Shown here: positions 960 to 12,520 of the stretch, piece by piece
How the letters are laid out: every line of letters starts with the position of its first letter
How positions within the stretch are numbered: position 1 is the stretch's first letter
Origin: an uncultured Clostridia bacterium
GTDB lineage: Bacteria; Bacillota; Clostridia; Oscillospirales; Ruminococcaceae
Reading direction: 5' to 3'
Length of the DNA: 64,000 nt
NCBI GenBank assembly: GCA_945876435.1
Contig: CAMCOD010000001.1
Location: 19,372 to 83,371, forward strand
Notes under the pieces: model-generated
What the model saw: only the letters and a program-made list of their open reading frames with translations
Databases searched by the model: none
Told to the model about the DNA's origin: nothing
Position numbers and translations under genes: made by a program

Positions 960-1199
960 TTGATCATGAAACACAAAATGAAAATTTCTCCTCAAACCCC
1001 TCCGGTCACGCAGGATTATCCCCGGCCGGCCGATACCTCCGATATCCCAAAGGATATCCGGGATAATCTGCACATCTCTCCGGAAAAACGGATCTGTCCC
1101 GCTTTTGACTATCTGTCTATCGCTTCCTACCGGGTAGCGTCACCGGATACGATGGGCGTCCGTGTGGTGGACAACATCGTGCATGAGCATATCATGTAG
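960..1199 (+). CDS. small hypothetical protein (77-79 aa), possibly forespore-expressed
   Basis: RBS GAGGTGAT just before TTG960/ATG966; ORF fills an intergenic gap; no recognisable family. Confidence 0.6.
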   Translation: MIMKHKMKISPQTPPVTQDYPRPADTSDIPKDIRDNLHISPEKRICPAFDYLSIASYRVASPDTMGVRVVDNIVHEHIM

Positions 1200-11385: not shown

Positions 11386-11413
11386 TTGAAACTGCAAATT
11401 TTTATGTTATAAT
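11386..11413 (+). promoter_or_regulatory. sigma-A promoter with extended -10 for the corA leader
   Basis: TTGAAA(11386-91)-16 bp-TATAAT(11408-13), with TG at 11405-06. Confidence 0.65.
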
Positions 11414-11497
11414 AAGACTGTTATAGAAATATCCAAGGGGTAAGTATGCCCCTGTCCCTTTTGTGGATTGAAATGGATTGAAATTGAGGTGAATGTA

Positions 11498-11566
11498 ATG
11501 AATCCTGACCCGTACAGTTGCTGTATGAAAAAATTTGACGGTCAGGGTTTTGCATTGGCTGCCTGA
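11498..11566 (+). CDS. leader peptide uORF (22 aa, MNPDPYSCCMKKFDGQGFALAA), MgtL-like, putative attenuator of corA
   Basis: RBS GAGGTG 11486-91, ATG 11498, TGA 11564-66; overlaps alternative helices that gate the corA SD (see findings). Confidence 0.7.
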   Translation: MNPDPYSCCMKKFDGQGFALAA

Positions 11567-11587
11567 CCATCTGAAAGAAGGTCGCCT

Positions 11588-12520
11588 ATGCTTAATTTCT
11601 ATAAAACAATCAACAATCGAATTGAAGAAATTCCCGCCCTGGAGGAAGGCTGTTGGGTAAGTGCTATTGCTCCCACAGCGGAAGAAATCTCGGTATTGGT
11701 AAAAAATCTGCATATTGACCCGGACTTTGTCCGTGCCGCATTGGATGAAGAAGAAGCTTCCCGTGTTGACAGCGATGATGACAACAATACGCTGGTCATT
11801 GTGGACGTGCCCATCGCCGAACAGGAAAAAGATGAGCATACCCGAGTTTTCTTTACCATGCCAATGGCCATTATTTACACCCCGCAGCAGATTGTCACCA
11901 TATCGCTGAAATCCAACACCATTATTGAGGAATTTCGCAACGGTGTGGTGAAAAATCTGCACACCAATCAGAAAACCCAGTTTCTGCTAAAATTGCTGCT
12001 GCGGATCGCCGGCCGTTTCCTGCAGTATCTGAAACAGATTGATAAGCTCTCCACCACCACAGAGAGCCTGCTTCATAAAATGATGCGTAATCAGGAGATC
12101 ATCCAGCTTCTCAGCCTGGAAAAATCCCTGGTTTACTTCTCTACTTCTCTAAAATCCAACGAAGTCACCCTGGAAAAGATCATGCGGGGACGCATCATCA
12201 AGCTGTACGAAGAAGATGAAGACCTGTTGGGCGATGTCATTATTGAGATCAAGCAGGCCATCGAGATGTGCAGCATCTACTCCAATACCCTTTCCGGTAC
12301 TATGGACGCCGTGTCCTCCATTATTTCCAACAACTTGAACAACGTGATGAAGGTTTTGACCTCACTGACCATTATTATGACCATTCCCAACATCATTTTT
12401 GGTATGTACGGCATGAACGTCAGCGGTCTTCCTTCCCCCACTTTCTTTACCGCTATGGCGGTAACGGCAGTTATCACGCTGATTGTCACGGTTATCCTGA
12501 TCCGAAAAGGCTTATTTTAA
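11588..12520 (+). CDS. corA: CorA family Mg2+ transporter
   Basis: Signature GMN motif (FGMYGMNV) between two C-terminal TM helices; SIISNNLNNVMKVLT. Confidence 0.95.
   Translation: MLNFYKTINNRIEEIPALEEGCWVSAIAPTAEEISVLVKNLHIDPDFVRAALDEEEASRVDSDDDNNTLVIVDVPIAEQEKDEHTRVFFTMPMAIIYTPQQIVTISLKSNTIIEEFRNGVVKNLHTNQKTQFLLKLLLRIAGRFLQYLKQIDKLSTTTESLLHKMMRNQEIIQLLSLEKSLVYFSTSLKSNEVTLEKIMRGRIIKLYEEDEDLLGDVIIEIKQAIEMCSIYSNTLSGTMDAVSSIISNNLNNVMKVLTSLTIIMTIPNIIFGMYGMNVSGLPSPTFFTAMAVTAVITLIVTVILIRKGLF

Follow-up and report, generated by a model that had tools for sequence, protein, structure and literature searches.

Conserved Met-x-Pro-Asp-Pro leader peptides and alternative RNA helices point to ribosome-mediated attenuation of corA in Clostridia

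The leader of a clostridial corA gene carries a short upstream open reading frame (uORF) that begins MNPDP, and its comparison with orthologous leaders points to a ribosome-mediated translational attenuator, composed of four RNA segments that would adopt three states under the control of an MgtL-like nascent-peptide sensor. We put the probability of this reading at roughly 60%. The ribosome itself would probably sense magnesium through the conserved Met-x-Pro-Asp-Pro start of the uORF, as it does with MgtL. The M-box is the usual Mg2+ sensor of Firmicutes, and to our knowledge all experimentally described cases of ribosome-based Mg2+ sensing (MgtL, MgtQ and probably CorL) come from Enterobacteria. 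A search of the literature returned these enterobacterial systems and no description of a Pro-Asp-Pro (PDP) leader of clostridial corA, in agreement with an initial sequence-only reading, whose author had known of no such system.

Results

The corA locus

The leader comes from an uncultured Clostridia bacterium and lies within a 64-kb stretch of contig CAMCOD010000001.1, hereafter the window, to which all coordinates refer (Table 1). The product of the downstream gene matches Pfam PF01544 CorA with E = 2.8e-51. The promoter predicted ahead of it matches 11 of 12 consensus positions, plus the TG extension, and would initiate transcription at about 11420, giving a leader of about 168 nt; together with an adjoining GACTGTTATAG block, it is also present in the related leaders L001, L002 and L005. 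A hairpin, possibly serving to stabilise the mRNA, is predicted in the 5' part of the leader; L001 and L002 carry a hairpin of the GGGCG..CGCCC type at the matching position. The fold of the window leader is far more stable than that of shuffled sequences (z = -4.8). It contains two copies of CCTGACC (11504-10 and 11562-68) on either side of one GGTCAGG (11540-46), an order that the 64 kb contain only once and that none of 100 shuffles reproduces. The positions originally given for the uORF and its Shine-Dalgarno sequence (SD), for these repeats and for the corA ATG were all verified on the sequence.

Table 1. Positions of the promoter, leader elements and regulated gene in the window
Feature	Position	Strand	Description and basis
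Predicted sigma-70-type promoter	11386..11413	+	-35 TTGAAA (11386-91), 16-nt spacer, extended -10 TGtTATAAT (11405-13)
5' leader hairpin	11436..11453	+	AGGGGTAAGTATGCCCCT; folding and matching hairpins in two relatives
SD of uORF	11486..11491	+	GAGGTG, 6 nt 5' of the uORF ATG
Segment 1	11489..11510	+	Helix A 5' strand; part of uORF SD, spacer, start codon and codons 2-5; pairs of the minimum free energy (MFE) fold
uORF	11498..11566	+	22 codons + TGA, product MNPDPYSCCMKKFDGQGFALAA; ORF reading; TGA 11564-66 within segment 3
Pro-Asp-Pro codons	11504..11512	+	CCT GAC CCG, codons 3-5, proposed sensor residues; conservation in relatives
Apical hairpin within helix A	11511..11527	+	CGUACAG-UUG-CUGUAUG, uORF codons 5-10; MFE fold
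Segment 2	11537..11559	+	Helix A 3' strand (11540-59) and helix B 5' strand (11537-46); folding, family covariation
Segment 3	11562..11572	+	Helix B 3' strand (11562-71) and helix C 5' strand/anti-SD (11564-72); folding, covariation
Segment 4	11576..11584	+	corA SD AGAAGG (11576-81) and helix C 3' strand; folding, covariation
corA, regulated gene	11588..12520	+	310 aa, YGMN motif, ATG 11588

Conservation of the uORF and its reading frame

The uORF, which we infer to be translated, is conserved, and comparison of the leaders finds its reading frame kept through segment 2. We compared 81 orthologous corA leaders from Oscillospiraceae and relatives, the CorA relatives sampled being the best 80 genome hits of a protein search. 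Loss of the uORF and its PDP codons from such leaders had been named beforehand as an outcome that would speak against the proposal; instead, an M-x-x-D-P uORF is found in 68 of the 81, and in 73 once D/E and P/A/S variants are admitted, with 8 leaders devoid of it. The conserved N-terminus reads M-[S/N/K]-P-D-P, with third codon positions that differ synonymously among leaders. Across the 73 uORFs, codon 3 is Pro in 61 (CCT41/CCC15/CCG4), codon 4 is Asp or Glu in every one (GAC66/GAT4/GAA3) and codon 5 is Pro in 71 (CCT43/CCG16/CCC8/CCA4). The CGA-AGT codons that follow PDP are likewise conserved and in frame in the uORFs of relatives; the AGT codon appears 73 times in frame versus 3 times out of frame. 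Start codons vary (GTG58/ATG8/TTG7), and a GGAGG precedes the start by 6-10 nt in 66 of the 73 leaders (by 7-8 nt in 57).

Codon periodicity and in-frame indels are seen across the same set. No stop codon interrupts the uORF frame across segment 2 in 56 of 58 leaders, whereas each of the other frames is open there in only 3 of 58. All 58 leaders have the uORF stop codon at segment 2 or further downstream, never earlier: in or after segment 3 in 41, and between segments 2 and 3 in 14. Its position is variable, from 143 nt before corA up to overlap with corA, and the length of the uORF ranges from 13 to 56 codons among leaders with the stop upstream of corA.

Three mutually exclusive helices

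Folding of the window leader supports helix A, yet not at the length of about 10 bp originally proposed: the helix extends to about 20 bp (11489-11510 with 11540-11559), burying the start codon of the uORF plus part of its SD, and its complementarity exceeds that of 200 of 200 shuffles. This sequestration of the uORF's own ribosome-binding site is an addition to the original scheme. The apical hairpin inside helix A has no structural conservation among relatives. Helix C, said to cover the corA SD, is indeed paired in the window (11564-72 with 11576-84, -6.9 kcal/mol) and covaries in relatives. Helix B (7-10 bp), when taken in the window alone, is within the chance level of shuffles (z = -0.76, p about 0.2); its support comes from covariation in relatives.

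By comparative analysis, helices A, B and C are mutually exclusive, conserved and covarying. When 52 full leaders were aligned with MAFFT (A1), the result was structurally inconsistent, so two unfitted alignments were used in its place, namely a MAFFT alignment of an 18-sequence subfamily (A2) and an alignment of the 3' half alone with 37 sequences (A4). On A2, the positions of helices A and C are 82.8% paired versus 34-55% when slid, with both sides changed in 9 pairs, and those of helix B are 85.9% paired versus 35-47% when slid, with both sides changed in 7 of 11 pairs. On A4, helix B is 78.9% paired (26-51% slid) and has 62 double-changed cells, as against 24 +/- 5.6 in shuffles (0/500); helix C is 72.9% paired and has 30 such cells, as against 16 +/- 3.8 (0/500). 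Helices B and C thereby both covary on the segment-3 columns that they share, and RNAalifold chose helix B unaided. Double changes occur in 20 of 24 pairs on a covariance-model alignment of 59 leaders; the covariance-model alignment (A3) was not used for helix B, as it could not be relied upon for that helix in distant leaders.

Cognate strands form the more stable duplexes, giving -17.3 kcal/mol for helix A and -20.1 kcal/mol for helix B, compared with -12.0 and -14.8 kcal/mol, respectively, for non-cognate strands. Searches for duplexes over whole leaders with long flanks returned noisy, strongly bulged duplexes, and segment-restricted analyses were substituted for them. In relatives, the distance from segment 3 down to the corA start is about 15-40 nt, and the segment shares positions with the anti-SD arm. 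The register of the helices differs between subfamilies, whereas the position of P-D-P is constant.

Modelled switching

The proposed logic, in which a ribosome on PDP blocks helix A, helix B forms and helix C melts, fits the conserved geometry as well as the direction of modelled SD accessibility. Over 56 leaders, the modelled probability that the corA SD is unpaired is 0.22 in the free leader; masking segment 1 brings it to 0.37, and masking segment 2 to 0.25 (Wilcoxon p = 4e-6 and 2e-4). In the window it rises from 0.22 to 0.31 once segment 1 is masked. Folding of the alternative states, which had been suggested as a check, thus gave the expected direction but a modest size, a gain of >0.2 on masking of segment 1 being seen in only 15-16 of the 56 leaders, and equilibrium folding backs the switch modestly. 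In several leaders, hairpin C is more stable than B, or B is formed without a ribosome, so the switch would have to be kinetic.

Specificity and distribution

Among sampled matches, the short uORF is tied exclusively to corA. Matches of the model R1 sit only upstream of corA, barring one weak match in L091, which precedes an ABC-permease-like ORF and is probably due to chance. The window leader itself scores 16 bits (E = 0.33), in the range of chance 5'-pattern matches, and its membership is therefore taken from direct analysis and from its close relatives. A metagenome search with an SD-MxPDP pattern gave 120 matches, of which 42 are short uORFs located 62-206 nt before CorA; no other Mg2+ transporter lies downstream of any of the 120. 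The matches away from corA were set aside as long ORFs starting with MNPDP or MSPDP by chance, or as unrelated contexts.

The absence of an M-box, already noted from the sequence, was borne out by Rfam scans: RF00380 was found neither in the leader (E <= 10), nor in the 64-kb window (gathering score), nor in 20 related loci. More generally, at E <= 10 the leader matched no Rfam family, and scans of the window and the 20 related loci turned up nothing relevant. Likewise, 8-10 uORF peptides were unmatched at E <= 10 by Pfam/NCBIfam models, including MgtL, although this is a weak test because the peptides are very short. Carriers in culture are Anaerotruncus, Acetanaerobacterium elongatum, Marasmitruncus, Youxingia, Solibaculum and Merdimmobilis, and Caproiciproducens is a further carrier genus of the leader.

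Discussion

We propose that the corA leader would pass between three states. With no ribosome on the uORF, helix A (1:2) and helix C (3:SD) would both form, keeping corA off and also burying the uORF start in helix A. The very strong SD of the uORF would recruit a ribosome during transcription, and at Met-x-Pro-Asp-Pro(-Gly) this ribosome would stay held or abort again and again, with failures becoming more frequent as Mg2+ runs low; by covering segment 1 it would allow helix B (2:3) to form, so that the corA SD would be freed and corA translated. When Mg2+ is sufficient, the ribosome would clear PDP and read segment 2, usually continuing into segment 3, so that helix B would not be sustained, C and then A would re-form and corA would be switched off. 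The pausing or abortion on PDP, as well as Mg2+ as the signal, we infer from the parallels discussed below. Reading of segment 2 by the uORF adds a third, trp-like OFF state to the two states originally envisaged. If ribosomes abort and leave, as in intrinsic ribosome destabilisation (IRD), their departure would open segment 1 and could let the stronger helix A return, in which case the ON state would need frequent re-initiation.

It would be conceivable, though we consider it unlikely, that the same attenuator serves another signal, such as prolyl-tRNA charging, EF-P activity, osmotic stress, general translation capacity or another cation transported by CorA (Co2+, Ni2+). The evidence on the ligand is confined to the PDP motif and the CorA gene, and in the enterobacterial mgtA leader the response also runs through Pro codons and is affected by EF-P. 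However, the short uORF occurs solely with corA in the sampled matches, a proline or EF-P sensor would have no obvious reason to be linked to a Mg2+ channel, and M-x-PDP with small residues behind it conforms to the rules published for Mg2+-sensitive ribosome destabilisation. A different logic, positive translational coupling, would have corA turned on by ribosomes that translate the uORF to its end and either open hairpin C or initiate again; under it, PDP would reduce corA expression when translation is poor. The uORF stops in or after segment 3, near the corA SD, in the 41 of 58 leaders mentioned above, and the window TGA falls inside the anti-SD arm, both of which would suit such coupling. 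We nevertheless regard it as quite unlikely: the stop is not fixed relative to hairpin C, lying between segments 2 and 3 in 14 of 58 leaders, the covarying helix B is left without a role, and Mg2+ scarcity would lower a Mg2+ importer, contrary to the behaviour of corL/corA and mgtL/mgtA.

Mainly transcriptional control, by helices that expose or hide Rho-dependent or intrinsic termination signals, would have the precedent of the mgtA and corA leaders of Enterobacteria, both of which act via Rho. Yet segment 4 is the corA SD and covaries with the anti-SD arm, no U-tract lies 3' of helix C in the window and a terminator scan was empty at 11564-84, which makes this possibility very unlikely in our estimation. 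We assign hardly any probability to an RNA-only element (a metal riboswitch or a thermometer) in which the apparent uORF is an untranslated by-product of helix A. The leader is strongly structured, and the PDP codons, being part of a helix that covaries, are conserved partly at the RNA level. Against this, the canonical spacing of SD and start is kept with all three start codons, and uncompensated changes of GTG to TTG mismatch helix A in L024 and L027. The codon periodicity, the in-frame indels and the single frame held open through segment 2 would also be unexpected of untranslated RNA, as would a fixed P-D-P in helices whose register moves between subfamilies, and Rfam offers no match.

The attenuator that we favor combines traits of several known systems. 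MgtL begins MEPDPT, and translation aborts within this stretch, an effect enhanced by low Mg2+ and by small residues; in the mgtA leader, poor elongation of the uORF turns the transporter ON. The clostridial element has in common with MgtL the Met-x-Pro-Asp-Pro N-terminus, rich in D/E/P and small residues right behind the initiator Met, the location in a 5' leader ahead of a gene for a Mg2+ transporter and the placement of the uORF in the first of mutually exclusive stems. In contrast, MgtL acts by Rho-mediated transcription elongation on a P-type ATPase gene of Gammaproteobacteria under PhoPQ, while the clostridial element would act through a sequestered SD on corA in Clostridia hosts, and no homology is detectable with the Rfam Mg_sensor, Pfam or NCBIfam MgtL models, the peptides being very short. 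The output is closer to that of mgtQ in Salmonella mgtCBRU, where a 1:2:3:RBS switch governs mgtB translation: a ribosome on region 1 lets 2:3 form, the anti-RBS then frees the RBS, and ribosome-destabilising acidic codons are needed. Translational control, and a ribosome on region 1 that favors 2:3, would be common to both (the latter as proposed for the clostridial side). However, mgtQ has 8 codons, lies between operon genes and carries Asp2 and Glu5 without PDP, whereas the clostridial uORF forms part of a 5' leader, extends over 13-56 codons (stop before corA) and always runs across segment 2. CorL shares with it the regulated gene family, corA; its translation efficiency is inverse to corA expression in E. 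coli and Salmonella, where corA responds to intracellular Mg2+. Compared through its published description only, CorL is poor in acidic residues and Pro and has Rho-dependent termination as its output.

The four segments, with 1:2 and 3:4 alternating with 2:3, recall the trp leader, in which the counterpart of the proposed segment-1 stalling is likewise ON and a ribosome at segment 2 is OFF, as the frame and stop positions in the 58 leaders fit. As in ermC, the SD is hidden by the 3:4 helix. Set beside mgtQ and ermC, the clostridial leader ORF, on its predicted translation, has its own SD overlapping segment 1 and the SD of the regulated gene in segment 4. Unlike in classical attenuators, the proposed signal is neither tRNA charging nor an antibiotic, 3:4 is no terminator, and helix A also covers the ribosome-binding site of the leader ORF. 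With the M-box (ykoK) of Firmicutes the element shares a position ahead of genes for Mg2+ transporters and presumably the same physiological purpose, but sensing would be by the translating ribosome rather than by RNA-bound Mg2+.

It is tempting, albeit tentative, to regard Met-x-Pro-Asp-Pro at the very start of a peptide as a portable Mg2+ sensor intrinsic to the ribosome, with independent origins in Proteobacteria (MgtL) and Clostridia, and as the chief means, replacing the M-box, by which corA of the Oscillospiraceae-Acutalibacteraceae would be adjusted to cytoplasmic Mg2+. If this is true, dozens of natural variants, including the CGA-AGT codons, would encode rules for the strength of nascent-chain ribosome destabilisation or pausing, and about 100 natural sequence variants are on hand for testing which residues and codons matter. 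Since the models of Pfam, NCBIfam and Rfam all miss them, the uORFs would go unnamed in model-based annotation. The element is also compact, at about 100 nt, and might serve in Gram-positive anaerobes as a translational switch responsive to Mg2+. A conserved M-x-PDP corA leader in abundant gut and digester Clostridia would carry the principle into another phylum, and would argue for convergence on one short peptide.

Results

The corA leader in the window

All coordinates in the sequence-only reading of the corA leader proved correct on re-checking, and its length of ~170 nt agrees with the ~168 nt that follow from a transcript start predicted near 11420 from the promoter. The gene has a phosphoglucomutase-family gene and a MurA-like gene as neighbours, one on each side. 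Helix A pairs segment 1 (the ribosome site and codons 1-5 of a short upstream reading frame, the uORF) with segment 2; helix B pairs segment 2 with segment 3, the anti-Shine-Dalgarno; helix C pairs segment 3 with segment 4, the Shine-Dalgarno (SD) of corA.

Features of the corA locus and its leader
Feature	Position in the window	Details
Promoter	11386-11413	TTGAAA, 16 nt, TGtTATAAT; near-consensus
uORF SD	11486-91	GAGGTG
uORF	ATG 11498 to TGA 11564-66	encodes MNPDPYSCCMKKFDGQGFALAA
Helix A	11489-11510 : 11540-11559	~20 bp; minimum-energy fold
Apical hairpin	11511-27	minimum-energy fold
Helix B	11537/40-46 : 11562-68/71	-12 to -15 kcal/mol
Helix C	11564-72 : 11576-84	covers corA SD AGAAGG; minimum-energy fold
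corA	11588-12520	Pfam CorA, E = 2.8e-51

The leader folds far beyond its shuffled versions (z = -4.8), and the arrangement CCTGACC..GGTCAGG..CCTGACC occurs once in the 64 kb and in none of 100 shuffles. In the minimum-energy fold, helix A takes in the start codon of the uORF together with part of the uORF SD; its pairing had been recognised before, although it is twice as long as was then proposed, and the same fold contains the helix C that had been said to bury the corA SD. Helix A is beyond chance in the window (reached in 0/200 shuffles), and helix B, taken alone, is within chance (z = -0.76). No Rfam family, the M-box included, matched the leader even at E <= 10, and a scan of the whole window returned only two tRNAs, bearing out the earlier remark that no M-box is visible at corA.

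A perfect tandem direct repeat (TGGATTGAAA x2, 11464-11483) lies directly 5' of the uORF SD and is absent from L001, the closest relative (L001-L080 denote orthologous corA loci in other genomes). At 11436-11453, ~16 nt past the predicted transcript start, stands a hairpin (AGGGGTAAGTATGCCCCT), and 6 nt beyond its stem a short T-run begins; a hairpin of different sequence occupies the same place in L001 and L002, many relatives have one just past the -10 box, and it may act as a 5' stabiliser. The predicted 5' end of the corA mRNA (11421-11430, TTATAGAAAT) is complementary at 10/10 positions to corA codons 3-6 (11595-11604, ATTTCTATAA). This pairing, which competes with 11477-88 : 11591-11602, is kept via G.U-compatible changes in L001, L002 and L005 and is not kept in leaders further removed. 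It could serve to fold the entire leader into a panhandle that hides the corA start still more, or to shield the mRNA at its 5' end.

Conservation of the uORF

Scanning the CorA protein against one genome per species gave the best 80 loci (53-87% identity), all from Clostridia and mostly from Oscillospiraceae and Acutalibacteraceae MAGs, with Anaerotruncus, Acetanaerobacterium elongatum, Marasmitruncus, Youxingia, Solibaculum, Merdimmobilis and Caproiciproducens among the cultured members. As the sequence-only reading would expect, these leaders conserve the uORF and its Pro-Asp-Pro codons (PDP, codons 3-5): with the window counted, 68 of 81 carry a short ORF M-x-x-D-P behind a strong SD, a number that rises to 73 once Glu is also accepted at codon 4 and Ala or Ser at codon 5. 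Within the 73, the start codon is GTG in 58, ATG in 8 and TTG in 7, and GGAGG stands 6-10 nt 5' of it in 66 (7-8 nt in 57). Ser, Asn or Lys occupies codon 2. Pro stands at codon 3 in 61 (CCT 41, CCC 15, CCG 4) and at codon 5 in 71 (CCT 43, CCG 16, CCC 8, CCA 4); between them, codon 4 is GAC in 66, GAT in 4 and GAA in 3. Gly follows at codon 6 in 40. Neither the peptide beyond its beginning nor its length is conserved across leaders. Read from its start codon, the frame stays open across the whole of segment 2 in 56 of 58 leaders, compared with 3/58 for each of the other two frames; no leader has a uORF stop before segment 2, and two codons are enriched in frame (AGT 73 in frame vs 3 out; CGA 45 vs 11). 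The open frame and the in-frame codon signals together form the signature of a translated frame, and the functional part, as judged from sequence, is the first 5-6 residues plus the need to read on through segment 2.

The AGT/CGA enrichment follows M-x-P-D-P-G, at uORF codons 7-10 in L001-L080 (codon 7 of the window, 11516-11518, is AGT). The two are often adjacent as CGA-AGT, at variable codon offsets, and Ser after M-x-P-D-P-G is coded AGT, not TCN. This bias suggests that either the codons or the RNA are under constraint, perhaps through slow decoding by wobble.

The eight leaders outside the 73 comprise seven with no recognisable uORF (L004, L007, L063, L065, L068, L073, L079) and L031, where the region reads MSPVPDS; variants within the 73 are M-x-P-E-P (L070, L074, L080), MNPDA (L002) and MSSDS (L052). 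In the 20 loci scanned, all eight uORF-less ones included, no M-box or other Rfam family was found as a replacement. A Caproiciproducens-like subfamily (L036, L037, L040, L046, L047 and L051 in genomes, L164 and L176 in metagenomes) has short leaders lacking segments 2 and 3, in which a uORF M-[N/K]-P-D-P-[L/F] begins only 58-70 nt 5' of corA and runs across the corA start in a different frame, apparently a simpler form of the same control that works by occlusion.

Covariation and modelled switching

All three helices, whose covariation the earlier reading had proposed to test, show double changes among relatives. In A2, an unfitted MAFFT alignment of 18 leaders, helices A and C are 82.8% paired vs 34-55% with the partner slid, 9 pairs having changed on both sides, and helix B is 85.9% paired (35-47% slid), with both sides changed in 7/11 pairs. 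In A4, which aligns only the 3' half of 37 leaders and is likewise unfitted, helix B was proposed by RNAalifold itself and is 78.9% paired vs 26-51% slid, with 62 double-changed cells vs 24 +/- 5.6 in shuffles (0/500); helix C, sharing segment-3 columns with B, is 72.9% paired, with 30 such cells vs 16 +/- 3.8 (0/500). The covariance model R1, built from A2, recovers 59 of the 81 leaders, once per locus and always directly 5' of corA, and the alignment fitted to it has double changes in 20/24 pairs. Alignment-free comparison of cognate with non-cognate segment pairs gave -17.3 vs -12.0 kcal/mol for helix A and -20.1 vs -14.8 for helix B. In relatives, segment 3 is found ~15-40 nt 5' of the corA start, in overlap with the anti-SD arm. 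The P-D-P codons keep segment 1 constant, so that segments 2 and 3 change in concert around it: they read GGUCAGG/CCUGACC in the window, CGGGCAGG/CCUGCCCG in L005, GGGCGGG/CCCGCCU in L013 and CCGGGGCGCGC/GCGCGUCCCGG in L055.

Folding of the alternative states moved SD accessibility in the direction of the proposed switch, by a small amount. Across 56 leaders, the corA SD core had a mean unpaired probability of 0.22 in the free leader, 0.37 with a ribosome footprint on codons 1-9 masked and 0.25 with segment 2 masked (Wilcoxon p = 4e-6 and 2e-4 for the accessibility comparisons); only 15-16 leaders shifted by >0.2, and one shifted in the wrong direction. The window gave 0.22 free, 0.31 with segment 1 masked and 0.21 with segment 2 masked, and some leaders favour C over B, or form B with no ribosome present. 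In the model, the switch works at equilibrium only partly. The modest shift, the leaders in which C wins or B needs no ribosome, and a window helix B within chance imply that a kinetic, co-transcriptional choice would be needed, which the unusually strong, conserved uORF SD would fit.

Specificity in metagenomes

Scanning metagenome contigs for GGAGGTG-N5-7-TGARYCCNGACCC gave at least 120 matches. Among the 120 listed, 42 are short uORFs 62-206 nt 5' of a CorA gene; the remainder are long ORFs beginning MNPDP or MSPDP by chance, or unrelated contexts, and no other Mg2+ transporter lies beside the pattern among the matches listed. Strong R1 matches (E < 1e-3) among those listed are all CorA-linked; the contig of one of them, L143, ends before any gene is visible. 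The sole non-corA candidate among the matches listed, L091 (GC-rich contig Ga0187785_10023347, ~1015-1098, minus strand), is an 18-codon MNPDPDSRR... uORF 5' of an ABC-permease-like ORF; it has a weak R1 match (23 bits, E = 0.013) and is probably a chance occurrence.

Discussion

The comparative evidence argues strongly for a conserved uORF-dependent switch at clostridial corA. We propose that in a leader whose uORF is ribosome-free, A and C would form, burying the uORF start and keeping corA off. A ribosome that halted on M-x-P-D-P(-G), or aborted there again and again, would cover segment 1, so that B would form, the SD would be free and corA would be on. A ribosome that passed PDP would read through segment 2, usually into segment 3, undoing B; C, then A, would re-form, and corA would be off. 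Coupling of the opposite kind, in which terminating uORF ribosomes turn corA on, is disfavoured, since the uORF stop position is unconserved and helix B covaries. An element made of RNA only is likewise disfavoured by the frame-specific evidence for the uORF and by start-codon variants left uncompensated. Rho might possibly act on transcription in addition to SD control, against which stand the identity of segment 4 as the corA SD and the lack of a terminator after helix C.

That Mg2+ would be the signal for the uORF-dependent switch is a well-motivated inference from published work on MgtL, mgtQ and corL, whose rules the consensus M-[S/N/K]-P-D-P-G-x-S fits. MgtL begins MEPDPT, and its translation aborts inside those residues; low Mg2+ and the absence of bL31 increase the effect, which is strongest at the extreme N-terminus and with small neighbouring residues. 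The ribosome-destabilising uORF mgtQ, with a 1:2:3:RBS switch, controls mgtB translation; the more corL is translated, the less corA is expressed, and in E. coli corA is responsive to intracellular Mg2+. Less probably, the same switch may answer instead to proline, EF-P, general translation or other cations.

The enterobacterial elements belong to a different phylum and have no detectable homology with the clostridial leader. The likeness is one of function, with MgtL for the sensor peptide, mgtQ and erm for the SD-sequestering platform and trp for the three-state logic. A full-text literature search found no description of the clostridial element, in line with the sequence-only reading; the search covered subscription papers thinly, so that an earlier description is possible. 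Mg2+ control in the phylum of the Clostridia is usually ascribed to the M-box. The leaders that have lost the motif, together with the variants, are natural controls. What appears to be new here, by function, is an MgtL-like peptide joined to an mgtQ/erm-like SD switch outside enterobacteria.
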